Assembly: GCA_963797555.1 (NCBI GenBank)
Contig: CAWCPV010000020.1
Span: 32,001 to 96,000, forward strand
Origin: an uncultured Gammaproteobacteria bacterium
Lineage (GTDB): Bacteria; Pseudomonadota; Gammaproteobacteria; CAWCPV01
Length of the DNA: 64,000 nt
Direction: 5' to 3'
Numbering within the stretch: position 1 is the stretch's first letter; every line of letters begins with the position of its first letter. The notes under the pieces are model-generated. The model ran no database searches. It was given only the letters and a program-made list of their open reading frames with translations, and was not told the DNA's origin. The position numbers and the translations under genes were made by a program. This document shows positions 10,229-28,276 of the stretch, one piece after another.

Positions 10229-10561
10229 ATGAAACCCGTCAGGCATCTGCTCCTCTCGGTCGCATTCCCGGCCCTGCTGTCCTTGTCCGCCCACGCTGAT
10301 GACTCCTACGCCCTGGCCATCAAGGACCATCGTTTCGACCCTGTCGAACTGGTCGTACCCGCCGGACAGAAAGTCAAGCTGCGAATCCTGAACCGCGATG
10401 GCACTCCAGAAGAGTTCGAGAGCTACGAGTTGAACCGAGAAAAGATCATTCCCGGCGGGCAGGAGGCCGTTGTGTTCATCGGTCCGCTGGATGCGGGCCG
10501 CTACTCCTTCTTCGGCGACTTCAATCGGGACACGGCCAACGGCGTCATCATCGCCAAGTGA
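10229..10561 (+). CDS. Periplasmic cupredoxin-domain protein (EfeO-cupredoxin/FtrB-like)
   Basis: Signal peptide (AHA), F.P..L.VPAG, EEFES, EKII, GPL..G.Y.FFGDF; lies next to FTR1. Confidence 0.88.
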   Translation: MKPVRHLLLSVAFPALLSLSAHADDSYALAIKDHRFDPVELVVPAGQKVKLRILNRDGTPEEFESYELNREKIIPGGQEAVVFIGPLDAGRYSFFGDFNRDTANGVIIAK

Positions 10562-10581
10562 CTACCGGAGAGATTCAGTCC

Positions 10582-12147
10582 ATGTTCGCTACCGCTCTGA
10601 TCGTATTTCGCGAAACGCTGGAGGCAGCCCTGATCGTCGGTATTGTGATGGCGGCCACGCGGGGCGCCGCGGGTCGGGGCCGCTGGGTCGGTGCCGGCAT
10701 CGTGGCAGGCACGGCCGGTGCGGCCGCCGTTGCTGCCTTCGCAGACGCCATCGCCACAGCCGTCTCGGGTATGGGTCAGGAACTCTTGAATGCTTGTGTG
10801 CTGTTCACCGCGGTGACCATGCTGGGCTGGCACAACGTCTGGATGAAACAGCACGGCCGCGAGCTAGCGGCCCGAATCAGTGGCATCGGGCGCGGCGTGG
10901 TGGAGGGGTCTCGGCCGCTGTATGCCCTCGCGGTCGTCGTGGGGCTTGCGCTCCTCAGGGAGGGATCGGAGGTCGTGCTGTTCCTCTACGGTGTCGTCTC
11001 ATCCCAGCGGGCCGGCACCCTGCCAATGCTCGCGGGCGGTATCATCGGGCTTGGGGGCGGTACCGCGGCGGGGTTTGCGATGTATCGGGGCCTGCTGCGC
11101 ATCCCAGCGCGTCATCTGTTCACGGTGACAGCGTGGATGATCCTCCTGCTCGCGGCGGGCATGGCGGCCCAGGGCGCCCGTTACCTGGTTCAGGCGGGCG
11201 TCCTTCCGCCGCTCGGCACGGCTCTTTGGAACACGTCGGCATTACTGCCCGAGCAAAGCCTGCCGGGACAGATCCTGCATGTATTGGTCGGCTACATGGC
11301 GCGTCCGGACGGCGTCCAAGTGCTGTTCTACACGGTCACATTGGTTCTGATAGGTGGGCTGATGAAGTGGAGCGGCCGGCGGACTGCGCGCCCGGCAGCG
11401 GCGCAGGCCGCCGCGATCGCGGTCTTGGTCTGCGGCGCGCTGACGTTGGGCGCTCCGCCCGAGGCACGGGCGAACTGCAAAGTGTACTCACCGCACGTCG
11501 AGACGGGTGAGCTGGAGTTGGAAGCGCGCGAGTGCCTGCTTCAGGATAGTAACCCCGAGGAAAGCGGTATCCGAACGGATACGTACGAGGTCGGTTACGG
11601 CTTTACCGATTGGTGGTCCTCGACCGCGGTGTTCGAGTACACGAACGAAGGAGAGGAAGGCTACCACCCGGCGGTGAGGGGGTGGGAGAACATTTTCCAG
11701 CTCACCGAGCCAGGCCGGTACTGGATGGACCTGGGCCTGTATCTGGAGTACGAGTGGGCCGTAGCTCATGACGAGTCGGACGGGGTCGAGGCGAAGATCC
11801 TCCTGGAGAAAAGTGTCGGTCGCTGGACGAATACCGCCAACGTCATCTTCGAGCGGCCGGTCGGCGGCGGCGCCGGCAACGACGTGGCGGTCAGCTACGC
11901 TTGGCGGACGCGCTATCGGTGGAGGCCCGAGTTCGAGCCTGCCATCGAGGCCTTTGGAGGGATCGGGAACACCGGCAACTTCGGGTTTAGCGGTCAATCC
12001 CAGACCCTCGGGCCCGTGGTCCTGGGTAAGGTCCGTCTCAACTCCAGGATGACGCTGGGCTATGAGGCGGGGTATCTCTTCGGTCTGACTTCCGGGAGTC
12101 CAGACGGAACCTTCAAATGGCTGCTGGAGCTGGAAGCGCGGATATGA
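10582..12147 (+). CDS. FTR1/EfeU-type iron permease fused to a probable outer-membrane beta-barrel domain
   Basis: Two RExxE motifs (RETLE, REGSE) and about 7 TM segments. An internal signal-like segment ends in ARA, followed by about 220 aa of aromatic/Gly-rich amphipathic beta strands. Confidence 0.85.
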   Translation: MFATALIVFRETLEAALIVGIVMAATRGAAGRGRWVGAGIVAGTAGAAAVAAFADAIATAVSGMGQELLNACVLFTAVTMLGWHNVWMKQHGRELAARISGIGRGVVEGSRPLYALAVVVGLALLREGSEVVLFLYGVVSSQRAGTLPMLAGGIIGLGGGTAAGFAMYRGLLRIPARHLFTVTAWMILLLAAGMAAQGARYLVQAGVLPPLGTALWNTSALLPEQSLPGQILHVLVGYMARPDGVQVLFYTVTLVLIGGLMKWSGRRTARPAAAQAAAIAVLVCGALTLGAPPEARANCKVYSPHVETGELELEARECLLQDSNPEESGIRTDTYEVGYGFTDWWSSTAVFEYTNEGEEGYHPAVRGWENIFQLTEPGRYWMDLGLYLEYEWAVAHDESDGVEAKILLEKSVGRWTNTANVIFERPVGGGAGNDVAVSYAWRTRYRWRPEFEPAIEAFGGIGNTGNFGFSGQSQTLGPVVLGKVRLNSRMTLGYEAGYLFGLTSGSPDGTFKWLLELEARI

Positions 12148-12399
12148 GTCCCCCGCAAGGGCTCGCCGAGGAGCGCATCGCCCACCACAGGCTTTTCTCG
12201 CTGCAGCGTGTGGGCGGGTTTGACTTTTGGTGACCGGTTGCCTGCTCGCCGGCATCGCAGAATGCTTCCACGGACTTGGCCATGACGCCTTGTGGTCGCG
12301 CCGCAGCGCCTCGTTCAGGAAGGCGGCCCCCTCGTCCGGATCCACGGTCTCGCTGCGCGCCAGAGCGGAAGGTTGGGACTCCGGGAGCGCCCGGAGCCC

Positions 12400-12992
12400 C
12401 AACGCGCCGGTGAGGTCGCTGCCGTCCAGTTAGAGGGAGTCGAAGAAGTACGCACTGAGCGGCACGGAGCCCCCGCACCGCCGCCGTCTGCTCCAGACGG
12501 CCGCAGTTACGTTGTTCCACCGGAACACCCGGACCGGGGTCCCCCGCCTTGTGCACCTGCATCCGGCCAGGCGATCCGCTTGGCCGAGGACGCTCCTGTC
12601 GCTACCGATTTCCACCAGCAGCATGGCCGTGCCGATGAGAGCGACGCCCGGCAGGGTTTTGAGCCAACAGGCGCCGGCTGGCCAACTGCAGGACCTCGTG
12701 GAGAGCGGCCCCCCTTGGATGAGGGCCTTGACCATGGCACAGGCCGATTGGCGCTGACCATTACCCCCAAACGGATGCTGCCATCGGTGAGCACCTTGTG
12801 CAGCCTCTTCTCCGAGGCAAGCTGCCCGACCAGCTTCTGGCGCTGCCGGGCGATCAGGCGCAACTCGCGCAGTTTGGCCGGGGGGACGAAGGAGCCGTGC
12901 CACAAACCGGCCAGAGCCAGCATGGCCAGCCACTGGGCATCACCGATGTCGGTCTTGCGCCCCGAGAACTATTTGACGTGGCGGGCGTTGAC
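12400..12992 (-). pseudogene. IS110-family transposase remnant
   Basis: VNARHVK*..GRKTDIGDAQWLA..GSFVPP..LRELRLIARQRQKL and TLPGV...LLVEIG segments, with stops and frameshifts. Confidence 0.8.
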
Positions 12993-13107
12993 CTCTCCCC
13001 GCCGTCTCCCACCCCTGAGTTTCTTTCATCCTCTGGGGTGGCGCCGGATGCAATGATCGTTGGGAGGGGAAGAGGGCAGCCTACGGTCGGGGCTGCCCGC
13101 GGGGCGA

Positions 13108-13425
13108 TTACTTCAGGCCCATGCAGTTGGCATAGTACGTCACCGTGGCGGGCCAGTCGGAGAAGATCCCCAGGATTTTCACCTTGCGGGCCAGCACGTC
13201 CAGGGCCTTGTACATGTCGCTGTCCTTTTTGATTGCCTTGCCTTCCGGATCGAACAAGTAGTATAAGCCGGCGTTTGCGGCGCCTTGGCGCAGGTCAGAG
13301 CGCTCGAAGGTCCAGGTGATGATGTCCAGGCCCGCTTTTTTGATGTCCGTTGCGTACTCGGATGGGACCACTTCGCCGGCATCGTTCACCGCGAGCAGCG
13401 CAAACATGGGCGGGGCGAAGACATC
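13108..13425 (-). pseudogene. C-terminal fragment of glycerophosphodiester phosphodiesterase
   Basis: VVPSEYA..IKKAGLDIITWTFERS...LDVLA..V.ILGIFSDWPATVTYYANCMGL; the N-terminus is missing. Confidence 0.75.
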
Positions 13426-13555
13426 GGCACTGAGCGAATCCGCCCGGCTACGGCGCAGACACAGCACGAATCCCTAGCGGCGTGGGGTGGTCGTCATCCC
13501 TGTTGGCCTCTCAGGCGCATCGGTCGGCTGGCGTCGCTGGCGTTATCGCCGCCGG

Positions 13556-13990
13556 TCAGTGCTGCAGCAACGTCAAGCGAGTTGCCTTCAGCAGGCGCCG
13601 AAAGCCCTTGTCGAAGCTCACGAGATGGCCGTGGTTCGACTCGACGGCGGCCGCGATCCAGGCATCCGGGATGTCATTGCCGGTCAGGCGGTGCCGCTCG
13701 CACAGATCCAGCAAGACCGGCCACTCCCGACCGAGCGGGGGCATATCGACGCCGGGGGACTCCAGCACGACGCGCAGGAACGTCACGGCGGCTTCCACCG
13801 GCGTGGGCTGGACGAAGACACGCGGATGCGTGACCAGGCGCAGGAATCCGGCGGCTACCATCGGCAAGACGGTCAGGGTCCGTCCCTCCGCGCACGCGTC
13901 CAGAGCCGAGTCCAGCCAGGCTCGCGCTGATTCGTGGTGCGGGTGGTCGGCGCGCGAGGCGGCGACCAGCACATTCACGTCGGGGGTCAT
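13556..13990 (-). CDS. vapC: VapC-family PIN toxin
   Basis: PDVNVLVAA, GFLRLVTHPRVF, GNDIPDAWIAA, LVSFDKGF. Confidence 0.9.
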   Translation of the reverse strand: MTPDVNVLVAASRADHPHHESARAWLDSALDACAEGRTLTVLPMVAAGFLRLVTHPRVFVQPTPVEAAVTFLRVVLESPGVDMPPLGREWPVLLDLCERHRLTGNDIPDAWIAAAVESNHGHLVSFDKGFRRLLKATRLTLLQH

Positions 13991-14250
13991 GTCCCCTCGT
14001 CCGCCTCGGTCCAGTCGTTAGTGGCGTCCAGCAGGGCACGGTGGCTGGTGGGGTCCGCAACCGCTGCTGTAAGTCCACCGACTCCTGCGAATACCGGGAG
14101 CGGGGGACGGGCACGTTGGAGTTTAGCCGGCGGCCGCAGCCGTAGCGCGAGCGCTTCCTCGATTAGACGGGTCAGGGTCGTGTGCTCCTGCGCGGCCACG
14201 GCCTTGGCCCGGGTCAGCAAGGCATCGTCGATGTCGAGGGTCGTTCTCAT
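13987..14250 (-). CDS. vapB: VapB-type antitoxin (RHH)
   Basis: MRTTLDIDDALL..AK..A......LT.LIEEAL; 4-bp overlap with vapC. Confidence 0.88.
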   Translation of the reverse strand: MRTTLDIDDALLTRAKAVAAQEHTTLTRLIEEALALRLRPPAKLQRARPPLPVFAGVGGLTAAVADPTSHRALLDATNDWTEADEGT

Positions 14251-15028
14251 GGGTGGAGCACCGATGCAGATTTCTGCATCATCCTATTATCGAGCGACGA
14301 CCCTGTCAATTCGGATCCCTGTTGCAGACAATGCCTGCTTCCGGTCGTTTTCGGACAGAGCGCCTGGACTATAGCCCGCTCCTCGCCCATGGTCAGCCCC
14401 TGGCGGCAGCGCGGCCAGGCCCAGAGTCAGGGCGAGAATGTGAGCGCTGTGGAACCACTCGGGGTCGAAGGCATGCGGCCAGGCGCAGCTCCAGCACCAA
14501 CCGCCCGTCGAAACCGGTGGCATGCAGCGCCACATCGAAAGCCGAACCGGGTGTCCACCAGCTTGCCACACAGCTCGTAGCGCTGCCCGCCGGCCCGCGC
14601 TGCAATGCGGCACAGGTAAACGAAGGCAGGCCAGGGAGGGGAGCCAGGGTGCGTCTGCGCGACCCATGCCCGGCGGTTGCTCAGGGCCTCCTGAGCGAAT
14701 CCCTTGTAGCCGTGGAAGCTGTTAGCGGGCCAGAGTGAGGGCGGCACCCAACAGCTCGGCCTCACCGACCTCGGGTCTGCCTGACCCGCTCCGGGCCGGG
14801 ACCGGAAGCCATTTGCGACCACTCGCTCCAGCGCCAAACGACATGCGGGGTGCCGACGCGAAAGATTCCACGCGCTGATCCTGATCGACCGCAGCCACCG
14901 CGCCGGGCGGGCCTCTATATCTCTCGCGTTCCCGGTCCTCCACCCCGACCCGGGCCGAAAGCTTGCGGCCCCGTCACCGCATATCCCCCGGGTGAGAGAA
15001 TCGAGCCCGGTCACCGGAGGAGCATCCC

Positions 15029-16174
15029 ATGGAAGTGTCTTTTTACCGGCTCACCTGGCACGCCCAGCTCGCGGCTGGCGCCTTGCTGTTCGTGTTGTCG
15101 CTCGCGATCGAGGCCGCCGTGCTTACCGAATACTTGACCAACGCGGTCCTCGCCGCGCCGCTCGCCCTCGGCCTGGAAGTCAGCAAGGCGGTGACCATCG
15201 TGCTCCACCGCTTCCTCACCGGGCAGGACCGGGGCAGCTACCCGGCGTCGGTACGCTCCATCGTTCTCGTTTTTCGAGCGGCCCTGCTGGTGCTGTCCGC
15301 TCTATGCTCGCTGATGTACCTCGCCCACAAGCTCGATCGCCCGCACCTGGAAGCGGTCCGCCAAGCCGACCTGGCGAGTATAGAACACGCCTATACGGCC
15401 GATCGCTCCCGCCTCGAGCGACAGTTCGCGCGCCAAGGGACCGAGACCGACAAGGTGGTCGCCGCCCGTTTCGCACAACTGCGGGAGCAGGCCGCAGACG
15501 GTTACCGGCCCGCCATCCGGGGCCTGCAAGCCCAGCTCACCGTGGAAATGGACAACTCCGTGAAAGGGAACTTCGTCGGCCCTCGCTACCGGACGATCGC
15601 TTCGCGCCTCGAGCAGGAGAAGTCCGCGTACCGGGAGCGCCTGGATGGACTCGCCGAGCGGGAGGCACGGGAGCGCGCCGAGAGCTTGGGCTCGCTCCGC
15701 GACGCGCAGGAGCGGGACCTGTCGCGGCTGCGCAGCGTCTTCGAGGCTCGTGCGGCGCATCTGCGCGGCGAAGATTATGCGGGAGATAGCCGGGTGGAGA
15801 ACCCCATGATCACCGCCTTCACTCGGGTGGTGCATCGGGTCACCGGCCTCGACCTGGACCCCCTGCTGTTCATCTTCCTGTTTTCGGTCTTTATCAGCCT
15901 CCTCATGGAGCTTGGCATCGTGGCGAGCTTCGAGACGCTCACCAGCTCCCACCTGCCGATCCTCTCTGCGGCCCACCGCATGAAGCTCCAGGTCACCAAG
16001 CACCGGATCGAGTCCGAGGGAGACTTGCAGACCGCCCGGATCGACGACGCGGCACAGCGCCAGAGAACGGCAGGATGGGTACGGGACATCGCTCGTTCAG
16101 TCGGCTTCGGCGCGGGCGGCCTCGACCGCAAGCTTGCGGATCCGGCGGAGCCCGGCGGATCTGGTTTCAAATAG
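15029..16174 (+). CDS. Uncharacterised membrane protein: 3 TM, long coiled coil, TM, tail (DUF4407-like architecture)
   Basis: GGAGGAG RBS; hydrophobic N-terminal helices; heptad-rich middle with GPRY motif; C-terminal TM LLFIFLFSVFISLLMELGIV. Confidence 0.75.
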   Translation: MEVSFYRLTWHAQLAAGALLFVLSLAIEAAVLTEYLTNAVLAAPLALGLEVSKAVTIVLHRFLTGQDRGSYPASVRSIVLVFRAALLVLSALCSLMYLAHKLDRPHLEAVRQADLASIEHAYTADRSRLERQFARQGTETDKVVAARFAQLREQAADGYRPAIRGLQAQLTVEMDNSVKGNFVGPRYRTIASRLEQEKSAYRERLDGLAEREARERAESLGSLRDAQERDLSRLRSVFEARAAHLRGEDYAGDSRVENPMITAFTRVVHRVTGLDLDPLLFIFLFSVFISLLMELGIVASFETLTSSHLPILSAAHRMKLQVTKHRIESEGDLQTARIDDAAQRQRTAGWVRDIARSVGFGAGGLDRKLADPAEPGGSGFK

Positions 16175-16210
16175 ACACGGATCACATCACAACTTGGAGG
16201 GACAGCAGCC

Positions 16211-16756
16211 ATGCCTGAAAACCGCGGGTCGGGAGACTCCCACACCGCCACCTACCACCCGGAGATCCTCCGGGCGCCGGTGGCGGACAACTCGGCGCTG
16301 GTCGACTCGGCGCTCGCCGCGCACCGGCAGAACTTCCTGCTCCGCCTGTTCCCGAACGACCAGGAGCGGGCGGTGCGCGGCCATGAGCTGGACCAGATCA
16401 AGGCCGGCTTCGAGTTCCGCCGCCGTGCCCTGCAGATGGCGGTGGAGACGAAGCTCCAGGCCATGGAGGAGATGTGCAACCACGTCCTGGTCACCGGCAA
16501 GAGCGAGATCCGCCGGCAGCGCCAGGAGTTCTTCGCCGAGCAGCAGCTCAAGCTGCAGACGGCCATGGACCAGCACGCGGAGCGCTTCAACACCCGCCTG
16601 GAGCGGCGTCTGGCGGAGCTTCAGCGTTACCAGAACCCGCAGCTCCGGCAGCGGGAGGAGCAGCGCCTGCTGCGGGCGCTGGATCAGTTCCACGAGATGA
16701 TCGAGCAGCTCTCCCAGGACTTCATGGCCATCATCCATGAAGGCGTCCACCGCTGA
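16211..16756 (+). CDS. Uncharacterised soluble alpha-helical/coiled-coil protein directly upstream of cas2
   Basis: GGAGG RBS; strong GC3 codon bias; rich in E/Q/R/L; 26 bp before cas2. Confidence 0.8.
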   Translation: MPENRGSGDSHTATYHPEILRAPVADNSALVDSALAAHRQNFLLRLFPNDQERAVRGHELDQIKAGFEFRRRALQMAVETKLQAMEEMCNHVLVTGKSEIRRQRQEFFAEQQLKLQTAMDQHAERFNTRLERRLAELQRYQNPQLRQREEQRLLRALDQFHEMIEQLSQDFMAIIHEGVHR

Positions 16757-16782
16757 GGGGCGCGGAGCCCGGAGGACGAAGC

Positions 16783-17067
16783 TTGACCACACAGCCCGCC
16801 ATCATCGCCTACGACATCGCGAGCGACGCCACCCGGCGGCGGGTGCGCCAGGTGGTCCAGGAGTGGCGCCTCGACGGCCAGAAGTCGGTGCACGAGTGCC
16901 TGCTGACGGAGGCCCAGGCGCAGGAGCTGTTCCTGCAGCTCGCCGAGACGTTGTCGGGCACTCGGGACCGGTTGCTGCTCGCCTGGGTGGCGCCTCACCG
17001 GGCGTGCATGGCGCGCGGGAAAGGCCGGATCGGCGGCCCGCCCTTCGGGGCGGCACGGGTGATATGA
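16783..17067 (+). CDS. cas2: CRISPR-associated Cas2 (first copy)
   Basis: IIAYDIAS..RRRV, QKSVHEC and DRL motifs; TTG start with GGAGG RBS. Confidence 0.9.
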   Translation: MTTQPAIIAYDIASDATRRRVRQVVQEWRLDGQKSVHECLLTEAQAQELFLQLAETLSGTRDRLLLAWVAPHRACMARGKGRIGGPPFGAARVI

Positions 17068-17071
17068 GGCG

Positions 17072-17432
17072 ATGGCCAAACGCGGCTGGTATCTGCTCGC
17101 CTACGACATCGCCTGCCCGCGCCGGCTGCAGAGGGTGCAGCGGCTCCTGAAGGGCGAAGGGCTCGCGGCGCAGCTCTCGGTGTTTTTCGTGTTCGGGTCG
17201 CAGGCCGAGGTCTCGGGGCTCCTCGACCGTGTGGCGGAGCGGATCCACGTCCGGGAAGACGATGTCCGCTGCTGGCCGATTCGACCATCCGGGGGCGGTG
17301 TGGTTCCACGGCGAGCCCCCAGTCAAAGGCCCCCTGGCACCGCCGGGCCGCAGACCTCGGCCCGAACAGGCGGAGAGCAAGAAACGGCGCGGCTCGGCGG
17401 TGCTCCGTATCCTGGGGAGGTGGCGGGCTTGA
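17072..17432 (+). CDS. cas2: CRISPR-associated Cas2 (second copy; probable single-base indel near 17280)
   Basis: YLLAYDIACPRRLQRV, QLSVF, EDDVR. Removing one base near 17280 gives ...WPIDHPGAVWFHG...RWRA ending at TGA 17432, which overlaps the cas1 TTG. Confidence 0.8.
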
Positions 17433-18469
17433 CCGGGGAGTTGCTGGTGGTGCTCGACCGTCGGGAAAGCACGGTTCGGCTCGAGGGTCGCGCCTTGCGC
17501 GTCCAGCATGCAGGCGGATGGGAGCGCATCCCCCTGGGGCTGGTGGGCCTGGTGGTGGTCCACGGGAGCCCCTCGGTGTCTTGCGACGTCTGGCGCGCCC
17601 TGGCGGAGCGCGGCGTGCCCGCGGTCATGCTGCCGTCGCGGGGCACCGGCGCGGCCGCCTGGGCCGGTGCCGGGCTGTCCACCAGCATCCAGGTACGGCG
17701 GCGCCAGCACCGGGCGGCCTCGGACCCTCCGCAACGCCTCGCGGTGGCGCGGGAGATTGTGCTGGCCAAGCTGTCTGCCCAGCGAGCCCTCGTACAGGGA
17801 CTGGGTTCCGGCACGATCCCGGTCCTGTTCGACACGGGGGGGACCGCCGCCCTGGTGGCGACGCTGGACAGCCAGTTGGCCGCGGCCCGCACGGCTCCCG
17901 ACCCAACCACCCTCATGGGGGCCGAAGGGGCAGCCGCCTCAGCCTGGTACCAATGGCTCTGCGAACATTTGCCGGGCCGCTGGCGCTTCAGCGGCCGCAA
18001 CCGCCGCCCACCGCGCGACCCGGTCAACGCACTGCTCTCCCTCACCTACACCCTCGCCATGACCGAGGCCCGGTACCAGCTCGAAGCCGCCGGGCTGGAC
18101 CCCGCCTTGGGCTTCCTGCATGGGGTGGTGCCCGGAAGAGACTCCCTGATGCTGGACGTGGTGGAGCCGCTGCGTCCAGGTGTCGACGCTTTCGTGCTGC
18201 GCCTGCTCGAACGGGTGGTCGAGCCGCGGGACTTTCACTACAGCCAGCGGGACGGCTGCCGGCTCAACAAAGCGGCGCGGGGAACGTATTACCAGGCGTG
18301 GGCCGCCTATCGCCTGGAATGGCCGGACCTCGAAGCGCGCGCTGCCGCCGGCAGCGAAGAAGAAGCGCCTGCTTACGCAGGCACGCTCTCCGGTGCCGCC
18401 TGGCGGGTCGTCCAATCCTTGCGGCGTCTCCTGCCCGACTTGGGCGACGAGCCCCAGTCCGATGGGTAA
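17429..18469 (+). CDS. cas1: CRISPR-associated integrase Cas1
   Basis: LMGAEGAAA, FSGRNRRPPRDPVNALLSLTY, GLDPALGFLH and SLMLDVVEPLRP; catalytic E, H and D/E are present. Confidence 0.93.
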   Translation: MTGELLVVLDRRESTVRLEGRALRVQHAGGWERIPLGLVGLVVVHGSPSVSCDVWRALAERGVPAVMLPSRGTGAAAWAGAGLSTSIQVRRRQHRAASDPPQRLAVAREIVLAKLSAQRALVQGLGSGTIPVLFDTGGTAALVATLDSQLAAARTAPDPTTLMGAEGAAASAWYQWLCEHLPGRWRFSGRNRRPPRDPVNALLSLTYTLAMTEARYQLEAAGLDPALGFLHGVVPGRDSLMLDVVEPLRPGVDAFVLRLLERVVEPRDFHYSQRDGCRLNKAARGTYYQAWAAYRLEWPDLEARAAAGSEEEAPAYAGTLSGAAWRVVQSLRRLLPDLGDEPQSDG

Positions 18470-19296
18470 GCTGCTGGACCGGGCACTGACGCCCGATGCC
18501 GTCAACCGCGCCTGGAAGAGCGTCCGAAACGACCGCGCACCGTGGCATGTCGGGATGAGCAGGACGGAAATGGAACGGAATCTTGCGACCCACCTGCTGC
18601 GCCTGGTCGATGATCTGCGACAGGGCCGGTACCGCCCCGATGCCATGAGGCAATTTACGATCGCCAAGGGAGACGGCCGCCAGCGCGTGCTCTCCGCCCT
18701 CACCCTGCGGGACAAGCTGGCGCAGCGCGCGGTCCTGTCGGTTCTCGAGCCCATCGGCGAACAACTGTTCCACCACGACAGCTTCGGCTACCGGGCCGGG
18801 CGCAACGTCGCCATGGCGCTGGCACGGGTCCGGGAGCGGGTGCACTGCGGTCTTCCCTGGCTGGTGGACGCGGACATTCGGGCGTTCTTCGATAACATCC
18901 CCCACCGCCCGCTGCGCAAGGCGCTGGCGCGTGTCGTCCCGGACCGGGAGGTCCTGCACCTCATCGACCAGTGGCTCGAGGTCGGCACGTACCACACCGG
19001 CATCCTCACCGGCCCCCGGGGGGTCCCCCAGGGGGCTGTCATCTCTCCGTTTCTCTGCAACGTCTACCTGCACCAGCTCGACGGACGGCATGCGCGAAGC
19101 GGCGTACCCTTCGTTCGTTATGCCGACGACTTCCTGCTGTTCGCTCCCGACGAGCGGACGGCCGCCAAGGCCCTGAAGCTCGTCGGCGTATACCTGCGGG
19201 AGTCTCGACCTCGAGCTCCACCCCGAAAAGACCCGGGTAGTGCTCTCCGGACCCCAGGTCAGCTTCCTCGGACAACCGCTGCCTGCGCCGCCGTGA
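18462..19296 (+). CDS. Stand-alone CRISPR-associated reverse transcriptase (group II intron-like, short; probable indel near 19199)
   Basis: SFGYR.GR, DADIRAFFDNIPH, GVPQGAVISPFLCNVYLHQLD and FVRYADDF. The shifted frame supplies LELHPEKT..SFLG and stops at 19296. The ATG overlaps the cas1 end. Confidence 0.9.
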
Positions 19297-19663
19297 CATC
19301 GTACGAGCCTAGCTAGCCTACCGCCCCCGCGCCATCCTCAAGCGCCGCAGGCGCTCTCTGCCCCCGCGCGCCCCCATCCCTACCCCTGCTCCCCGCGGCA
19401 GATGAAAACGGCCGCTGCGCCCACCACGACCGTGGACAGCGGCCGGGGGTCAGCTACGAAAGGGAGGAGTGACGCAACCCGTGATGGCGAGCAAGCGCCC
19501 ACATATCCCGATCTGCCAAACATCGCCAACATGGTCTACACTACACTTGGTTTCCAACCGAGACCGTACCGACATGCGTGTAGCTAACTCCCTCGAACAG
19601 TTTCCGTGTCGCCGCGGCAACGCCCAACCGCCTGCTGGCCGTGGCTGTCTCGCGGCAGGGGGG
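19297..19663 (+). promoter_or_regulatory. Probable CRISPR leader
   Basis: Non-coding stretch between the RT gene and the first intact repeat; the degenerate repeats lie at the opposite end of the array. Confidence 0.6.
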
Positions 19664-21894
19664 GGCAGAACGCAGACCTGATGAAGAAGGGATTGAGACA
19701 AGCCTAAACTTCCGCTTTCACTCCCCACGTCGGCAGAACGCAGACCTGATGAAGAAGGGATTGAGACTTGACAAGAAGAGCTATTGCCGCATTATGCCAG
19801 AGGCAGAACGCAGACCTGATGAAGAAGGGATTGAGACATCGGCTGCCGCGCATATCCAACTTCCCGATCTCGGGCAGAACGCAGACCTGATGAAGAAGGG
19901 ATTGAGACATGGACGCCCTGAACGGCGCCGTCAACTCCACGGGCAGAACGCAGACCTGATGAAGAAGGGATTGAGACCGGAACAGCCCGGGGACGCCCAT
20001 CGGGATCAGGTGGCAGAACGCAGACCTGATGAAGAAGGGATTGAGACCGTAGCGTTGGGTGACATACTGCACGATGTCAGGGGCAGAACGCAGACCTGAT
20101 GAAGAAGGGATTGAGACCCGAGAGCCTGCTCTATCGGACTTACATCCCCCGGCAGAACGCAGACCTGATGAAGAAGGGATTGAGACACTGGGCGCGCATC
20201 CCGGCCTACACGCGGTAATAGGGCAGAACGCAGACCTGATGAAGAAGGGATTGAGACCTCACCTCTTTCGATACTGGTAAGGTCATCGAGGGCAGAACGC
20301 AGACCTGATGAAGAAGGGATTGAGACTTCCGTGATACCCGCAATAGAGCGTCATCGCCAGGCAGAACGCAGACCTGATGAAGAAGGGATTGAGACGCGTA
20401 TAGAACCTACCGAACGAGATGATCTTTCCGGCAGAACGCAGACCTGATGAAGAAGGGATTGAGACATGAGCCGGCGTAGTCAGCTATCTGTAGGGCAGAA
20501 CGCAGACTGATGAGGGATCAGAACGCAGCACCTGATGACGAAGGGAATGCAGACCTGATGAAGAAGGGATTGAGACTTGCCACTGACACTCGCAGGATCG
20601 ACGGGCAGAACGCAGACCTGATGAAGAAGGGATTGAGACGACTTGGAGCGCCGCATATTCCGCCAATGTGAGGGCAGAACGCAGACCTGATGAAGAAGGG
20701 ATTGAGACCGATGCGATCCATCTCCTCAAAGCGCGCCTCGAGGGCAGAACGCAGACCTGATGAAGAAGGGATTGAGACTTCCCGAAGGCGGACGGACCAT
20801 CCTGTGTACGCCGGCAGAACGCAGACCTGATGAAGAAGGGATTGAGACCTCCCGAAAGAGCTACCAGCGCTGTTCGCCTCCGGCAGAACGCAGACCTGAT
20901 GAAGAAGGGATTGAGACAGATACAACCTCGGCGGTGCGTCGATCAGGACTTGGCAGAACGCAGACCTGATGAAGAAGGGATTGAGACCCATACGTGATTG
21001 CCGCTAGTAATAGATCAATGAAGGCAGAACGCAGACCTGATGAAGAAGGGATTGAGACCGCCTAAGGTAGTCCTCTGTGCTCTCCTTTCCCTGGCAGAAC
21101 GCAGACCTGATGAAGAAGGGATTGAGACAACGTCGCGAAAATCGTGAACGCTCCGGTTGGGGGCAGAACGCAGACCTGATGAAGAAGGGATTGAGACTCC
21201 AGTCCTTTGATGTAATCGCATGGTGCTAACAGGCAGAACGCAGACCTGATGAAGAAGGGATTGAGACAATTTGAGCAAGGCAGGGTCAAACCATTATCTT
21301 GCGGCAGAACGCAGACCTGATGAAGAAGGGATTGAGACGCTATTCGAAGTCGCATTTGACCACCTCCTCGAGGGCAGAACGCAGACCTGATGAAGAAGGG
21401 ATTGAGACACGTGGACGCAGAGCGACACAGTCGAATTGCCAGGGCAGAACGCAGACCTGATGAAGAAGGGATTGAGACGCCGTGATTCCAGCTACCGCCG
21501 TCAATTTCTTGTGGCAGAACGCAGACCTGATGAAGAAGGGATTGAGACCACCTGTCCGGCAGGTAACTGCTAAGGCTTATGGGCAGAACGCAGACCTGAT
21601 GAAGAAGGGATTGATACTGGAGAAAGAGCGGCACACCTCACTTCACCAGCGGCAGAACGCAGACCTGATGAAGAAGGGATTGAGACATGTTCCTCCCGCG
21701 TTATCAGTGGATTGGCGTGGCAGAACGCAGACCTGATGAAGAAGGGATTGAGACCTGTAGGGATGTGGTCGTTTGGATAGAGAGCCGTAGGCCGAACGGA
21801 GACCTGATGAACAAGGGATTACGACGGCGACCGGAAGGTCACCGTGGCCATGTCCCTTGGCGGGACGGGGATCTGGTGAAGAAGGAGTTAGGAC
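19664..21894 (+). CRISPR. CRISPR array with 36-bp repeat GGCAGAACGCAGACCTGATGAAGAAGGGATTGAGAC; about 32 repeats, spacers mostly 32-35 bp
   Basis: Counted by eye: 29 near-identical repeats, one garbled block (20494-20576) and two degenerate terminal repeats (21790-21825, 21859-21894). The ATTGAGAC 3' end fits the 8-nt type III crRNA tag. Confidence 0.98.
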
Positions 21895-21995
21895 GACATT
21901 TTCGACAGCCGATGCGGTCAGCGCGGCGCTGATGTGCCATGGGGGCGGTGGGTGTTGCGAATATCAACGTCACAACGTGGAAAGGAGAAAGCGCC

Positions 21996-22871
21996 ATGGG
22001 TAAGAGCCGCAAGAAGGCGCGGTCTGGGCCGCCGGCCATCCAGGCCGAGCGTGCCTTCGCCGCTATCAAACAGACATTCGGCTCGAACAAACCGCTGGCC
22101 ATCGGTCTAGCGGCCTTGCTGCTACTGACCTTTGGCTGGTTCGTGAATGCGACTTACGACCTGCCCCTTTTGCTGGATGGAAACACTGCCTTGGGGTTTC
22201 GGCTGCGGGTGGTGGGGGGCCTTTTGGCCTTTCTCCTTGTGTCCGTCTGGCTGGTCTGGATGGCTAGCCGTGCGAACGTGACTGTCCCAGTGATCGTGGT
22301 GCAGACACCCGACCCGCCCAAGGTCGCAGGCCTTATCACGTTTCTGAGCCCGCCCGGCGCCGATAGGGCGCAGATCGAGACCTTTGCGGCCAGCACCGTT
22401 GGCGAAGCAGAGCCACCCGACCCCCGTGCGTCTCTGAAGGGCTCGTGGCGAATGCCCCTTGAGGCCCTGGCCTACCACGCAGAGCGGCTCAAGTACCTGG
22501 TGGTCATCCCCTCCGCCGATGACCCCAGAGACCCGCAGGGCAAACCTGGAACTTGGCGGGACATGGAACTGTTCAAGGCCGTGGTCGCGCGGTATAGCGG
22601 GGGTCGGGTTGCCGCGGAATGCCTACCCGACTGCCACCAGGGTGTGGATTACGAAGATGCCCGCGCCGCAAAGGATGGCGTGGATAGCGCCTATGCGTCG
22701 CTTCTGCAACGCGGACTTAAAACCTGCGATATCCTGGTGGACATCACCGCCGGACAGAAACCCACCACGATTGCCGGCGCCGCAGTGGCGCTCGTGGAAG
22801 ATCGTCAGTTCCAGTACGTCAGCACCCGCGACTACCGCGTAGTGACCTACAACATCACCTATCAGAGCTGA
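21996..22871 (+). CDS. TM-CARF effector (Cam1-like cyclic-oligoadenylate-activated membrane protein)
   Basis: Two N-terminal TM helices, then a Rossmann-like CARF (ITFLS...LVVIPS...GVDYED...ILVDITAGQKPTTIA...QYV); AGGAG RBS. Confidence 0.75.
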   Translation: MGKSRKKARSGPPAIQAERAFAAIKQTFGSNKPLAIGLAALLLLTFGWFVNATYDLPLLLDGNTALGFRLRVVGGLLAFLLVSVWLVWMASRANVTVPVIVVQTPDPPKVAGLITFLSPPGADRAQIETFAASTVGEAEPPDPRASLKGSWRMPLEALAYHAERLKYLVVIPSADDPRDPQGKPGTWRDMELFKAVVARYSGGRVAAECLPDCHQGVDYEDARAAKDGVDSAYASLLQRGLKTCDILVDITAGQKPTTIAGAAVALVEDRQFQYVSTRDYRVVTYNITYQS

Positions 22872-22873
22872 CC

Positions 22874-23197
22874 ATGGGCACCATTTATGTCATCAACTCC
22901 CCCGTCCTCACCGACTACGGGTTCTGGCGCTTCCGTGGCCCATTATCCGTGGACGAGGCCCGCGACATGCTTGCGGGCGGTTTCGTGTCCGCCATCGGCC
23001 ATGAATCGGCGGCCCAGTTCCTGTCCCGACGCCTCGGGGTGACCGTCCCGCACAACCGGGTGCGCGTGAGCATGGCGCCGGGTGACCGAGCGCTGGTGCT
23101 GCGGCTGGGCGCCCGTCTGCCCGAAGGGCGGCAACTGACCGATGAGGACATGGAGCAACTTCCGTTCGAGCTGGGGCTGATGGAGCGGGAGGGATAG
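22874..23197 (+). CDS. crn2: DUF1874 / AcrIII-1-family ring nuclease (Crn2)
   Basis: Y..NS, FVSAIGHESAA, NR, RLPEG..L motifs typical of the STIV B116/AcrIII-1 family. Confidence 0.85.
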   Translation: MGTIYVINSPVLTDYGFWRFRGPLSVDEARDMLAGGFVSAIGHESAAQFLSRRLGVTVPHNRVRVSMAPGDRALVLRLGARLPEGRQLTDEDMEQLPFELGLMEREG

Positions 23198-23524
23198 CCG
23201 GCCACCTGGCACGGACGGGAGTCCGGGACGTCCGAGTCGGCCCGAGAACGCGGACAGGTGTTACGGTGGTTCCTTGCTTGCTGGAACGTCATCAGAGCAA
23301 ACCGGCCTGGAACGTCTGGCGCCGGGCCCCGTTATCGGGTGACGCGATGAACCTCAGTCCTGCCGTCGGCGCCTACCCCGGGGGGCGAGCCACGCGAACA
23401 GCAGCCGATCCCGGCTCAAGTCGACGGACTCCACCAACTGCAGGAATAGCTCCTCCGCCTCGGGTTCGGTAGGCGGGTACTGCACACCCTGCGCGAGTGG
23501 CGGCTGGATCTGCAGGAATCGGTT

Positions 23525-23745
23525 CACGAGTCCAGATTCCGCGCGAGATATACTGTATGACGGAGCACGCCACCGAGAGCAGCAGCAACGCTACTCGGAA
23601 CGACAGCACCATGGAGGACGGAACCGAGGCAGTCGCCACCGCATGGGTCTTCATGAAGCGGTACACGACGATGGCGAACGCCTTACTCAGCTCCAAGCCG
23701 CCGGAGAGGGCAAGAGCGAGCACCGCGCTATCGAGGAACGGTAAT
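23525..23745 (-). pseudogene. Degenerate fragment paralogous to the membrane protein at 15029
   Basis: AVLALALSGGLELSKAFAIVVYRFM...LSFRVALLLLSVACS..YLARNLD aligns with AVLAAPLALGLEVSKAVTIVLHRFL...LVFRAALLVLSALCSLMYLAHKLD. Confidence 0.75.
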
Positions 23746-23799
23746 CCGGGGTTCTAGCCCGTGTTACACTGTCTTACGCTATACGGAGCGGAGGATTCC

Positions 23800-24015
23800 A
23801 TGAGCACTCTGACCATCCGCATCGACGACAAGCTCGATGCCGAGCTCGAGCAGCTCGCGAGGATCACACAGCGCACCAAGAGCGATCTCGCGCGCGAGAT
23901 GCTGCGCCGGCAGGTCGCCATCGCTCGATTCCGGGAGCTGCGCAGAAAGGCCATGCCGTTTGCGGAGGCAGCGGGCTACCTGACGGATGAGGACGTGTTC
24001 CGCGACATCTCGTGA
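23800..24015 (+). CDS. RHH/CopG-family antitoxin
   Basis: MSTLTIRIDDKL..L..LA....TKSDLAREML; C-terminal GYLTDEDVF; overlaps the PIN gene. Confidence 0.85.
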   Translation: MSTLTIRIDDKLDAELEQLARITQRTKSDLAREMLRRQVAIARFRELRRKAMPFAEAAGYLTDEDVFRDIS

Positions 24016-24416
24016 GGGTATTTTTGGACACCAACGTGCTCGCAAGTGCATTGACCGCCCGCGGCCTGTGCGCCGATGTCCTGCAGACGGTCCTTGCTGA
24101 CCACCAGCTTCTGTTCTCCGCCCAGGTTCTCGCCGAGCTCGCCGATGTCTTGCCACGCAAGTTCGGCCTCCCGTCCGCCGTGGTAGATGAATTCCTCACT
24201 CTTCTTACGGACGAAGGAACGCTGTCCGCCGCACCCGGCCCATGTCCGATCCTGCCTGATAACCCAGCCGATGCCGTCATCGTCGCCAGCGCGCTGGCGG
24301 GCGGGGCGGAAGTCTTCGTCACCGGGGACAAGGAACTGTTGGATCTCGGGAAGGCCGAAGGCGTGCCCATGCTGTCGCCGCGGCAGTTCTGGGAGCGGTT
24401 GGCCGCGGGCACGTGA
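24012..24416 (+). CDS. PIN-family toxin (VapC-like)
   Basis: VFLDTNVLASAL, EL..VL..KF, D.PAD, FVTGDKELL, LSPRQF. Confidence 0.88.
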   Translation: MRVFLDTNVLASALTARGLCADVLQTVLADHQLLFSAQVLAELADVLPRKFGLPSAVVDEFLTLLTDEGTLSAAPGPCPILPDNPADAVIVASALAGGAEVFVTGDKELLDLGKAEGVPMLSPRQFWERLAAGT

Positions 24417-24658
24417 GTGTCCCCAGTCCGCGCAACCGCGGCGGACTGCTTGGTCCAGCACGGCCGCGCCTGGGCCGCTGAAACGCGGATACGCAGGAGA
24501 GCCTAACCGAAAGAAGGAGGAATCACTGGGCTGGCAAATTTGCCGAGGGGTACGTTGAATAGCGACCGATGACGGCTCTCGTCAATGCCCGCCGTTCAGG
24601 GCAAAGAACACTTGGTGAGGCCAGGACGGCCCACGGAGGAGGCCGACGGGAGGACCCG

Positions 24659-25768
24659 TTACAGCTTTTTGTCGAGTCGGTCGAGAACAAATATCTCGCC
24701 CTCAAAGTGGCCGAACAGCCGCTTCGCGTCTTGGTCGGCCCAGGCATCGCATTCGTGGGTGCTGTCATCCACCGGATTCTTGAGGATCTTGAAATCGAGG
24801 CTGCTCAAAGCGATCTGCTGATTCGATTCCAGGTACCGAGCCAGTTGATCTACACGCTCATTCACCAAGCGCAGCCGCTCCCCCGCGAGGGTGCGGATGC
24901 TGCGTTCAAAGCCGGAGCCGAAGCGTAGCCGGCGCGAGGGTGAGTCCCAAAGGCGTTCCTCGTAGATCCGTGGGCAGGCTTCCCGCCAGACGATCTCACC
25001 CCAGGCTGAAAGAGTAGCCTGTCCCCCGTCGACGAACAGCAGGGTATCCGGGATTCCAGCCACTTCCGCCGCCGCCACCGCAAGCTGTGCCCCCATCCGG
25101 CGGAAGGCGGCAAGATGGGCCCGCACGGTCGCCTCTGCATCGAGCTTGAGCGGGAGACGCGGCAAGCGCAGCAGCTCGTGACCCGATTCGAAGACATATA
25201 CGCTCTCGTCCGCATAAAGCATCGCGAGGGCCTGCATGAACCCTTGTACGCTCTTGAACCCACCGGTGAGGTTGAAGACTACACGGTAGCCTTGCCGCGA
25301 ATACTTCCGAAGGGTTCCGGCACACCAGGTGGCAAGTTCGGTCATGGCAGCCTGGAAACCAGGCAGCTCCTCTGTCTGCAAGTCCTTGACCCGGTAAACT
25401 TCTGCTCCCAAGCCGGCCTGCTGCAGTATGTCTGCGATTATCCGTGCGCCATTCTCTCCTAACCAGGTATCTGTACAGAGCAGCACATGGTGATCGGGCG
25501 CACGGGCAGGGAACCTTCCGTGATACCAGCGCAGCAGGCCATTCAGCTCGGCGCTCAGGGCCATCAATATCGCGGGTTCCCTCCGATCGACAAGTTCCTC
25601 GCGCCGTTTCTGGATGTGCGGCTCGATTAACTCTCGTACCTCGGTTGGGATCTGTTCCGCGGAAACTGCATTTGCATACTTGGTAAGTAGCTTTCGCAAC
25701 TCATCCTGAACCTGATTGGTAAACAGGCTGGTCCCGCAGGTGGAAACGATGAGGTGTCGCTGCGCCAT
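24659..25768 (-). CDS. CARF (APE2256-like)-wHTH-RelE effector, Cami1-like mRNA interferase
   Basis: STCGTSL, SAELNGL, TDT..G, FNLTGGFK and YVFE CARF motifs; C-terminal RelE-like region (FERSI...LDFKIL...THECDAW...KRLFGHFE). Confidence 0.8.
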   Translation of the reverse strand: MAQRHLIVSTCGTSLFTNQVQDELRKLLTKYANAVSAEQIPTEVRELIEPHIQKRREELVDRREPAILMALSAELNGLLRWYHGRFPARAPDHHVLLCTDTWLGENGARIIADILQQAGLGAEVYRVKDLQTEELPGFQAAMTELATWCAGTLRKYSRQGYRVVFNLTGGFKSVQGFMQALAMLYADESVYVFESGHELLRLPRLPLKLDAEATVRAHLAAFRRMGAQLAVAAAEVAGIPDTLLFVDGGQATLSAWGEIVWREACPRIYEERLWDSPSRRLRFGSGFERSIRTLAGERLRLVNERVDQLARYLESNQQIALSSLDFKILKNPVDDSTHECDAWADQDAKRLFGHFEGEIFVLDRLDKKL

Positions 25769-25799
25769 ATTCCTCTCCGAACTGGTCAAAAGCATCGCG

Positions 25800-26119
25800 G
25801 ACCGGAGTGCGAGCTGATGTGTCCATCGCGCCCATCCGCAAGACCTTGTACTCCTCGACCCGCGCCCCGAGAGCGCGCATGTCCTCGGCCGTCAGCTCCT
25901 TGCCGCGCAAGTCCGGGGCAGCTCCAGGGCCAGGTGCAGGTAGCGCCCGCCCCGCTCGCCCACGTCGGCAGCGAGGTTGACCGGCAGCGAGCCGATCACT
26001 ACGTCGGCGGCCTCGATCCGCGCCACGTCCAGGTGATCCACGATCTGGTCTACTCGAATCCCCCCGTCCTGCGTCCAGTTGCGGGCACCGGGGTGGCGGG
26101 TAACGAAGTAGGTGGTCAT
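25800..26119 (-). CDS. csx16: Csx16 (VVA1548 family) putative ring nuclease; frameshift near 25915, 3' end uncertain
   Basis: YFVTRHPGA..W, HLD, DVVIGSLPVNLAA.V...G.RY.HL.L, continuing in another frame as RGKELTAEDM...GA.VEEY.V. Confidence 0.85.
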
Positions 26120-28265: not shown

Positions 28266-28276
28266 GACCGTTCTCC

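Follow-up and report, generated by a model that had tools for sequence, protein, structure and literature searches.

Two conserved genes at the head of an RT-linked type III-D CRISPR adaptation operon as candidate cas genes

Introduction

CRISPR adaptation modules linked to a reverse transcriptase (RT) can record RNA into DNA, and their choice of substrate is poorly understood. The window analyzed here, a 64,000-nt stretch of a contig from an uncultured gammaproteobacterium, contains such a module, and the genes for a membrane protein (memCC) and a small soluble protein (sol181) lie at the head of its operon. This arrangement raises the question of whether the two genes belong to the adaptation machinery or only travel with it. 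No printed description of the memCC-sol181 pair was found; two bulk catalogues lay outside that search.

Results

Layout of the locus

The operon, its leader, and the array run in one direction, and the type III-D effector module is situated past the array.

15029-16174, plus strand: memCC, 381-aa membrane protein (open reading frame with GGAGGAG ahead of the ATG)
16211-16756, plus strand: sol181, 181-aa all-helical soluble protein (open reading frame with GGAGGGA ahead of the ATG)
16783-17067, plus strand: cas2a, TTG start (PF09827; PADLOC Cas2 models)
17072-18469, plus strand: cas2b (residues 6-71) and cas1 (residues 127-411) in a single open frame (PF09827, PF01867, translation)
18462-19316, plus strand: stand-alone group-II-intron-like RT with YADD motif (RVT_1; PADLOC RT)
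19317-19664, plus strand: leader, between the RT and the first repeat (sequence)
19665-21754, plus strand: CRISPR array of 29 repeats, GCAGAACGCAGACCTGATGAAGAAGGGATTGAGAC
21939-37066, mixed strands: type III-D interference and signalling module (Pfam, PADLOC), with the following parts
21939-22871, plus strand: TM-CARF protein (Pfam/PADLOC)
22874-23197, plus strand: B116-like protein (Pfam/PADLOC)
24659-25795, minus strand: CARF-RelE (Pfam/PADLOC)
26154-33948, minus strand: three Cas7_IIId, Cas5_IIId, a weak Csx19-like match, and Cas10 (Pfam/PADLOC)
34218-35288, minus strand: CARF protein (Pfam/PADLOC)
35909-37066, minus strand: Cas6 (Pfam/PADLOC)
23381-23741, minus strand: relic of a second adaptation operon, memCC and cas2a fragments (tblastn, HMM)

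An earlier note on this DNA had placed a 381-aa protein with four transmembrane segments and a 181-aa helical protein, co-oriented and each with its own ribosome-binding site, ahead of the cas genes, and the open reading frames, their spacing, and both sites were confirmed. The gaps were 36 nt between memCC and sol181, 26 nt between sol181 and cas2a, and 4 nt between cas2a and the next frame, followed by an 8-nt overlap of the RT, with its ATG at 18462, and the cas1 stop (18467-18469), the same spacing as had been described. The operon genes of the window are not set apart by any convincing terminator-like site, and a search for separate promoter-like sites between them, a weak test in a G+C-rich genome, gave none. 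The proposed order cas2-cas2-cas1-RT held for the genes themselves (Pfam), but the second Cas2 and Cas1 share one uninterrupted open frame, in which they are joined via a Pro/Gly-rich linker; in most related loci cas2b and cas1 are separate, overlapping frames.

The neighboring genes were readily assigned. Both cas2a (35.7 bits) and cas2b (37.7 bits) scored above the Pfam cutoff of PF09827 (23.8), and cas1 matched PF01867 at 226.4 bits over profile positions 2-282 of 283. The RT (RVT_1, 114.4 bits; PADLOC RT, E 6.7e-82) carries YADD and adjoins cas1 and the array, which identifies it as a CRISPR-associated, group-II-intron-like RT. In this assembly it contains a frameshift at about 19199-19201: the frame as assembled extends to 19316, and the conserved C terminus lies in another frame with its stop at 19294-19296, the point at which the earlier note had ended the region. 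Of the 29 array repeats, 28 are identical, and 100 shuffles gave 0 matches; the array follows the RT in many related loci as well. The module past the array is type III-D by its Cas10 (E 9.3e-78) and its III-D-type Cas7 (E 2e-138, 2.4e-107, and 1.3e-37) and Cas5 (Csx10; E 4e-59) profiles, with a weak Csx19 match (E 1.1e-4; all PADLOC). The suggestion of a new system goes too far: an RT-linked type III-D adaptation module with two Cas2 proteins is of a known kind, and this one carries two extra uncharacterized genes.

The suggestion of a decayed membrane-gene paralogue across the array also needed modification. The paralogue is real: a fragment of memCC (residues 34-96) lies at 23741-23556 on the minus strand (tblastn E 5.7e-8, 48% identity over 64 aa; HMM E 3.3e-11). 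However, a cas2a fragment (residues 42-71) adjoins it at 23470-23381 (tblastn E 3.6e-9), so what remains here is a degraded second adaptation operon rather than a membrane gene alone. sol181 is missing from the relic.

Linkage to RT-CRISPR adaptation genes

The two genes proved to be linked to cas1, cas2, and RT far beyond chance, as the earlier note had anticipated. First, in genomes found through sol181, cas2a was directly downstream at 12 of 12 loci. Among the first 11 of these, Cas1 was present in 11, cas2b in 10, and RT in 10; the locus from which RT was missing reaches a contig end there. The 12th genome had the same gene order up to cas1, where the fetched stretch ends. Second, an independent sample of metagenome loci was retrieved by the DNA motif of the memCC hairpin tip, giving 41 loci, 40 of which encoded memCC (34 clusters at ≥90% identity). 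Where 600 nt or more followed memCC (34 loci), sol181 was the next gene in 33; the exception (L031) has 2,446 nt downstream of memCC without sol181 or cas genes. Among the memCC-found loci bearing sol181, cas2a was present in 31 of 34, the remaining three stopping at contig edges, and cas2a-cas2b-cas1-RT came after sol181 wherever the contig went on. The estimated median gaps were about 65 nt for memCC-sol181 (n = 44) and about 22 nt for sol181-cas2a (n = 42). Third, memCC and sol181 were each single-copy in five whole genomes, where both lay at the CRISPR locus; the window's own genome has Cas1 matches on five contigs but the pair only at the locus described here. There were no extra copies in these six genomes, contrary to what would be found if the homologues occurred mostly away from CRISPR loci. 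Finally, memCC turned up in none of 400 further genomes sampled from the phylum.

The layout memCC-sol181-cas2a-cas2b-cas1-RT-leader-array is a conserved one, the order reflecting shared descent in part since the linked loci are kin. They range from 34 to 70% G+C, and in these diverse genomes both genes consistently and specifically accompany cas genes. That memCC and sol181 are real conserved protein families tied to cas2-cas2-cas1-RT is strongly supported.

The memCC protein

In the AlphaFold2 model of memCC (mean pLDDT, 90.2), three membrane helices at the N terminus precede a helical hairpin, which is followed by a fourth membrane helix and then by a long C-terminal helix that extends to about residue 358. 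The hairpin (residues 107-247) is about 95 Å long, with two helices of about 65 residues each and a conserved motif at its tip (residues 173-187), and charge counts favor its placement in the periplasm. Across 32 sequences, E50, K53, L86, S90, P105, G184, and E294 are invariant. At E ≤ 1e-3, memCC has 175 representative relatives.

Among the first 11 sol181-selected loci, memCC is broken in three (L001, L002, and L003), although its frameshifts may be errors of assembly, the genomes being metagenome-assembled, and four others (L005, L007, L009, and L010) carry a hairpin-less "mini" form. All seven retain sol181, which argues that sol181 is the core factor and that full-length memCC is dispensable. 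In the mini forms an arginine-rich short loop replaces the hairpin, which is awkward for a periplasmic hairpin.

As had been suspected of both proteins, memCC belongs to no named Cas family: Pfam, NCBIfam, and PADLOC gave no match, nor did any solved structure. Two candidate identities did not hold for the window protein. DUF4407 (PF14362) matched 3 of 32 memCC relatives (best E, 3.4e-6), but the window protein (P0001) had no family match at E ≤ 1; a distant relationship is possible, and a DUF4407 cluster is among the nearest Pfam-bearing ESM-Atlas clusters (score, 0.80). The dynamin-like protein LeoBC (PADLOC PDLC03841), also without a match to the window protein, was weakly matched in the stalk and membrane part of its model by 5 of the 32 relatives (best E, 9.4e-6); in P0092, the one relative whose match was examined, only the C-terminal part of the profile is covered (positions 313-549 of 601), whereas a LeoBC protein should match over the full length, GTPase part included.

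Eight uncharacterized phage proteins of similar size share the predicted architecture of memCC (Foldseek against BFVD; E 2e-6 to 7e-4, TM-score 0.31-0.38), and viral members make up 81% of one of the three nearest ESM-Atlas clusters. No relatives were found in phage records when memCC and its distant relative P0145 served as tblastn queries, or in PHROGs scans of 32 memCC relatives.

The sol181 protein

sol181 is predicted to be all-helical (AlphaFold2 mean pLDDT, 67.7), and its relatives form 80 clusters at E ≤ 1e-3, including its own. Part of its conserved core is the motif EEMCNHVLVTGKSEIRRxRQEFFAEQ, located where one long helix turns into the next, and the hairpin tip is conserved and basic (C89, N90, H91, K97, R101, R102, and R104). 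In 10 six-gene loci, mean identity to the window protein was 49.7% for sol181, compared to 47.7% for Cas1 and 45.5% for Cas2b.

No Pfam or NCBIfam family and no solved structure matched sol181. Its predicted structure had no recognizable nucleic-acid-binding or enzymatic fold, no nuclease or polymerase motifs were present, and viral contigs scanned for it contained no relatives. PADLOC returned only two weak ZorA3 coiled-coil matches (the better one at E 2.6e-4, 17.6 bits, profile positions 360-474 of 780). The better match lies in the coiled-coil tail alone; sol181 has no membrane domain, whereas the ZorA of Zorya combines a MotA/ExbB-like membrane domain with its tail, and sol181 does not qualify as a ZorA.

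Discussion

Relation to known adaptation modules

The closest described module, from Vibrio vulnificus YJ016, likewise belongs to type III-D; its adaptation is RT-assisted, it has two distinct Cas2 proteins, and its operon adjoins the array. A pair of Cas2 proteins is described as typical of RT-CRISPR clades 6 and 13 (PMC6821258). There, however, RT is fused to Cas1 in a three-gene operon, whereas here it is separate and follows cas1, the order is cas2a-cas2b-cas1-RT, and memCC and sol181 head the operon. The accessible part of that report describes acquisition of spacers in Escherichia coli by RT-Cas1/Cas2A/Cas2B from an operon without memCC- or sol181-like partners (PMC6821258). On that account, such factors are not generally needed for RT-linked adaptation.

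Integral membrane proteins are encoded at other CRISPR loci, chiefly of type III, and a membrane-CRISPR link has been proposed. Compared by description, as far as the accessible accounts go, those of known role act downstream of interference or signalling, whereas memCC lacks a CARF or sensor domain and is tied to adaptation genes. In the accessible text of the literature found, DUF4407 is mentioned only in passing.

Cas4 and Csn2 are accessory factors of adaptation, a class into which sol181 would fall. Csx18 and PrimPol are further genes other than cas1 and cas2 that occur in adaptation operons and are specific to module lineages (PMC6546367). None of the Pfam, NCBIfam, or PADLOC models of these four matched sol181.

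Proposed role

We consider it somewhat probable that memCC and sol181 are dedicated accessory genes of one RT-linked type III-D adaptation lineage and thus candidate cas genes. The earlier note had offered two hypothetical mechanisms, tethering of RT-Cas1-Cas2 to the membrane and a defense/dormancy pair coupled to acquisition. In an accessory role, sol181 would assist both the Cas2a/Cas2b-Cas1 integrase and the unfused RT as a soluble cofactor; it may link one to the other, or it may hold nucleic acid via its basic hairpin tip. With its membrane helices and C-terminal helix, memCC would anchor the adaptation machinery to the inner membrane or regulate it there, with the hairpin as a putative optional module serving as a sensor or a spacer.

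A bolder form of this proposal, that adaptation in this lineage is both located at and gated by the membrane, seems to us rather unlikely. The periplasmic hairpin of memCC would then sense envelope disturbance or nucleic-acid entry, and the cytoplasmic helix together with sol181 would bring in the integrase and the free RT or switch them on. Spacers would be drawn from invader RNA that is entering the cell or is transcribed early, rather than from host transcripts. If true, this would be a spatial answer to self/non-self discrimination in the capture of spacers from RNA.

Alternative explanations

The pair could instead be a membrane-acting defense module that rides with the adaptation operon and takes no part in spacer integration. 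It could work through abortive infection, through exclusion of superinfection, or as an addiction pair of the toxin-antitoxin type, with memCC disturbing the membrane or barring entry under the control of sol181. Membrane effectors are already known as CRISPR accessories, with Csx28 and CorA named in the accessible part of one report (PMC12669027). The invariant charged residues within the memCC membrane helices (E50, K53, and E294) are of a kind common in pore and channel proteins, and decay of memCC with persistence of sol181 is expected if the former is costly and the latter protective. The phage proteins of memCC-like architecture, the 81% viral cluster, and the weak DUF4407 and LeoBC matches among relatives point the same way. 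However, the pair keeps to the adaptation genes rather than to the cOA-signalling or effector genes, which already hold CARF effectors, and it was never found alone in the six whole genomes. Antitoxins evolve fast, and the conservation of sol181 at the level of Cas1 and Cas2b is taken as unlike them. Apart from the ZorA3 coiled-coil matches, the window proteins matched no PADLOC defense model, and the searches by tblastn, in PHROGs, and in viral contigs yielded no phage or viral relatives. We judge a pure defense role improbable.

Less probable still is a sensor-regulator pair that switches on the operon or the array, for example, under envelope stress, and stands outside the integration machinery. 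Membrane location, first place in the operon, and a long hairpin with a conserved tip would suit a sensor, and a membrane anti-sigma/ECF sigma pair is described, in the accessible text, as controlling a CRISPR-Cas system (PMC6061681). Against this, sol181 is without any DNA-binding, sigma, kinase, or receiver domain, loci with the mini forms retain sol181 although the hairpin that would act as sensor is absent, and no promoter-like site of its own separates the genes, subject to the weakness of that test. Finally, that the two are chance neighbors or mobile-element cargo with no functional CRISPR tie is scarcely credible, L031 being the one locus in its favor against linkage in 12 of 12 and 33 of 34 loci of widely differing G+C content and single copies at the CRISPR locus in the genomes examined.

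Implications

Two conserved proteins, one of them membrane-bound, locked to an operon of unfused RT, Cas1, and two Cas2 proteins would be new components of RT-linked adaptation. They are small, clonable, and testable in the published heterologous acquisition assay for the related module, and they may matter for RNA-recording tools based on such operons. Through memCC and sol181, the place and timing of spacer capture from RNA would become directly accessible to study.

Organization of the adaptation operon and its array

The adaptation operon is headed by memCC, a 381-aa membrane protein with a helical hairpin, and sol181, a 181-aa all-helical soluble protein. The features of the region are as follows.

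15029-16174, + strand: memCC, ORF of 381 aa with a Shine-Dalgarno-like sequence
16211-16756, + strand: sol181, ORF of 181 aa with a Shine-Dalgarno-like sequence
16783-17067, + strand: cas2a, directly 3′ of sol181
17072-18469, + strand: cas2b and cas1 in a single ORF (second Cas2, residues 6-71; Cas1, residues 127-411)
From 18462, + strand: RT, its ATG overlapping the cas1 stop by 8 nt
After RT and before the array, + strand: leader, ∼345 nt
After the leader, + strand: CRISPR array, 29 repeats (28 identical)
23381-23741, − strand: relic of a second adaptation operon, a memCC fragment adjoining cas2a fragments, sol181 absent

The earlier note's intergenic distances (36, 26, and 4 nt) and Shine-Dalgarno-like sequences were all seen in the window sequence. 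A PIN-domain ORF (PF01850, E 1.4e-11), probably a VapC-like toxin gene, lies upstream on the opposite strand (13556-13990, −) and shows memCC to be the gene that opens the + strand operon. Further upstream is an FTR1-family iron permease gene (PF03239, E 1.8e-29; 10558-12147, +), which appears unrelated to the CRISPR island. No promoter-like site turned up on the + strand 5′ of memCC in a sigma-70 scan, a result that is uninformative at the window's G+C content of ∼65%, and Rfam showed no family within 12000-24500.

Two features of the coding region allow more than one reading. First, cas2b and cas1 are joined in the window by a Pro/Gly-rich stretch (residues ∼72-125 of the 17072-18469 ORF) and are separate, overlapping ORFs in most related loci; the window ORF is either a true fusion or contains a Cas1 with its own internal start. 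Second, RT carries a frameshift at ∼19199-19201, and its frame as it stands ends at 19316. In seven of the eight homologous RTs tested, the last ∼30 residues align in the other frame (19201-19293), which reads SLDLELHPEKTRVV... and reaches a stop at 19294-19296. This frameshift is either an assembly error (the genome is 84.6% complete) or a real lesion.

The array is interrupted for ∼140 nt at 20466-20604, where Tandem Repeats Finder lists a stretch resembling a degenerate repeat (row 20521-20576), and it therefore consists of two blocks, of 12 and 17 repeats. The 3′ end of the repeat is ATTGAGAC, which we take to be the sort of end that gives rise to type III crRNA tags; if so, the array and the operon are read in the same direction.

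memCC and sol181 are linked to adaptation genes

Linkage was assessed in two samples of related loci (L001 to L053). Sample 1 was found through sol181 by scanning one genome per GTDB species and comprised 11 loci, whose record titles name Ectothiorhodospiraceae, Competibacteraceae, Thiohalocapsa, Lysobacteraceae, a "Phycisphaerales" MAG, and unclassified Gammaproteobacteria. A tie of the pair to cas genes is supported here: cas2a lay immediately 3′ of sol181 in 11 of 11 loci, with Cas1 in 11, cas2b in 10, and RT in 10, the locus without RT stopping at a contig edge. A 12th genome, 1 of 60 examined from the same class, has the order memCC-sol181-cas2a-cas2b-cas1, the fetched stretch ending inside cas1.

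Sample 2, independent of sol181, was obtained from metagenomes through a degenerate DNA motif of the memCC hairpin tip, which is blind to the hairpin-less mini forms and to distant memCC subfamilies (20-26% identity). It gave 41 loci, 40 of which encode memCC (34 clusters at ≥90% identity); L016 was rejected as a chance match of the motif. The next gene after memCC was sol181 in 34 of the 40. The loci without it have ≤209 nt (L018, L039, L045, and L046), 359 nt (L053), or 2446 nt (L031) downstream, and among the memCC loci with ≥600 nt downstream sol181 was present in 33 of 34. The only memCC locus with downstream room but neither sol181 nor cas genes was L031 (934-3721, −), where memCC is followed by two other helical ORFs (199 and 218 aa) on a contig of 36.9% G+C. 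Of the 34 sol181-bearing loci, 31 have cas2a and the other three reach contig edges; cas2b, cas1, and RT come next wherever the contig continues. An array follows RT in many related loci, with III-D genes nearby. Across these loci, the median estimated gaps are ∼65 nt (memCC to sol181) and ∼22 nt (sol181 to cas2a), and the G+C content ranges from 34 to 70%.

In five whole genomes, memCC and sol181 are each single-copy and lie at the CRISPR locus; one of these genomes, G405, the source of L003, is flagged unpublished. In the window's own genome, sol181 occurs once, memCC occurs once besides the relic, and five contigs show Cas1 matches. Four more Cas1-matching loci, several split over frames, lie on its contigs C2, C4, C7, and C9 and have neither memCC nor sol181. 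A further 400 genomes sampled from the phylum yielded no memCC. By tblastn, neither protein matched plasmids, and neither memCC nor a distant relative of it matched phage records; PHROGs gave single marginal matches only, and no sol181 relatives were found in viral contigs.

sol181 is retained where memCC varies

sol181 is intact in all 11 sample 1 loci, and memCC in 3 (L004, L006, and L008). memCC is broken by a stop or frameshift in L002 and L003 and internally deleted in L001. L005, L007, L009, and L010 have, upstream of sol181, a mini form of ∼210 aa with four membrane helices and a C-terminal helix and no hairpin. These mini forms retain an equivalent of E294 and have lost that of E50. 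In L011 the memCC position is occupied by a hydrophobic ORF with a charged C-terminal helix (marginal match, E 0.006). Judged from these sequences, the conserved part of memCC is the membrane helices and the C-terminal helix, the hairpin being optional.

In the ten loci with all six genes, the mean identities to the window proteins were 38.9%, 49.7%, 54.7%, 45.5%, 47.7%, and 54.7% for memCC, sol181, Cas2a, Cas2b, Cas1, and RT, respectively. With 49.7% compared to 47.7% for Cas1 and 45.5% for Cas2b, sol181 behaves like a core component.

Predicted structures of the two proteins

Neither protein has a Pfam or NCBIfam match, in line with the earlier note, which had recognized no named Cas family in the pair. 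memCC also had no match in PADLOC. A search at E ≤1e-3 gave 175 representative relatives of memCC, the majority 350-380 aa long and aligned over their full length. In a 32-sequence alignment, the invariant residues are E50 and K53 in the second membrane helix, L86 and S90 in the third, P105, G184, and E294 (fourth membrane helix), and a motif, EMDNVVNGxFxGPRY, spans residues 173-187. AlphaFold2 models memCC with confidence (mean pLDDT 90.2). Residues 2-36, 39-65, and 73-102 form helices; next comes a hairpin made up of helices 107-174 and 185-247, followed by a short helix (259-272) and one spanning 278-358. This puts the conserved 173-187 motif at the hairpin tip. The Lys+Arg count over the alignment is low in loop 1 (0.16) and higher at the N-terminus (1.2) and in loop 2 (1.9), from which we infer that a topology with the N-terminus inside, the hairpin outside, and the C-terminal helix inside is favored; the short, arginine-rich loop that the mini forms have speaks against it. 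Structural candidates were rejected: Foldseek against the PDB returned only ABC-exporter rows (TM-scores ∼0.1), and generic antiparallel coiled-coil hairpins (SMC, EmrA, HlyD, and others) reached Z ≤10.4, the range expected for long helices (VIA-align wide).

For sol181, PADLOC gave only weak ZorA3 matches, the better one (17.6 bits) to the coiled-coil tail of the model. A word-index search gave 80 clusters at E ≤1e-3, including the query's own, with full-length matches 45-70% identical and a strongly conserved core (P48, R70, E86, C89, N90, K97, R101, R104, and others). Its model is all-helical and of middling confidence (mean pLDDT 67.7; helices 50-93, 98-137, and 143-180), and places a CNH...GK...RRxR motif at the turn joining the first two long helices. 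Foldseek found nothing in the PDB at E ≤0.001. Longer or fused forms were sought and none found, a search that is weak evidence. Profile searches of PDB sequences with the sol181 alignment A1 and the memCC alignment A2 gave nothing below E 0.06, and the ESM Atlas held unnamed clusters only for both. hhalign showed no relation between the two proteins (probability 1.2%). A prediction of their complex, run without controls from alignments A6 (memCC) and A5 (sol181), scored 0.03 against a mark of 0.32, a result that speaks neither for nor against an interaction.

Type III-D surroundings and comparison with known systems

Past the array lies a type III-D module encoding a membrane CARF protein, an STIV B116-like protein, CARF-RelE, three Cas7_IIId, Cas5_IIId, a weak Csx19-like match, Cas10, a second CARF protein, and Cas6. 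The membrane CARF and B116-like genes come after the array (21939-23197, +). B116-like homologues also occur upstream of memCC in L006, L008, L038, and L042, no more than ∼20 nt from the memCC frame in L008. The decayed memCC paralogue reported beyond the array was borne out as the relic at 23381-23741 (−), where memCC (48% identity over 64 aa) is again joined to a cas2a fragment; one cas2a fragment is inverted (23471-23533, +).

RT-linked type III adaptation is established, and PMC6821258 describes two Cas2 proteins for RT-CRISPR clades 6 and 13, both being required in the Vibrio vulnificus module. In V. vulnificus, RT is fused to Cas1 in a three-gene operon (PMC6821258), whereas in the window RT is a separate gene and memCC and sol181 lead the operon. 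Literature searches and text passages of PMC5513706, PMC6013744, PMC5541045, PMC8632793, PMC6821258, PMC12669027, PMC10910872, PMC6546367, and bioRxiv 10.1101/270033 gave no description of either protein. Of two bulk surveys, one (bioRxiv 10.1101/270033, Fig. 3C) notes uncharacterized membrane proteins in type III loci and the other (PMC10910872, Fig. 6B/S14) links adaptation modules to transmembrane domain proteins; it is possible that memCC or sol181 was catalogued before in such surveys.

Candidate roles

The strongest rival to a role in adaptation is that the pair forms a membrane-acting defense or addiction module. Such a module would fit the buried charged residues of memCC and its decay while sol181 stays intact, as well as eight phage proteins built along similar lines (TM-score 0.31-0.38, E 2e-6 to 7e-4 in Foldseek BFVD) and weak links of memCC to DUF4407 and to LeoBC, in the latter case to its stalk and membrane part. 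However, the pair is tied exclusively to adaptation genes, not to signaling genes, and sol181 is conserved at a Cas-like level. We read memCC and sol181 as candidate adaptation accessory factors. As adaptation factors, sol181 would act with the Cas2a/Cas2b-Cas1 integrase and the unfused RT, and memCC would position or control this integrase/RT machinery at the membrane. The window system is of a known kind, with memCC and sol181 as two candidate new cas accessory families.
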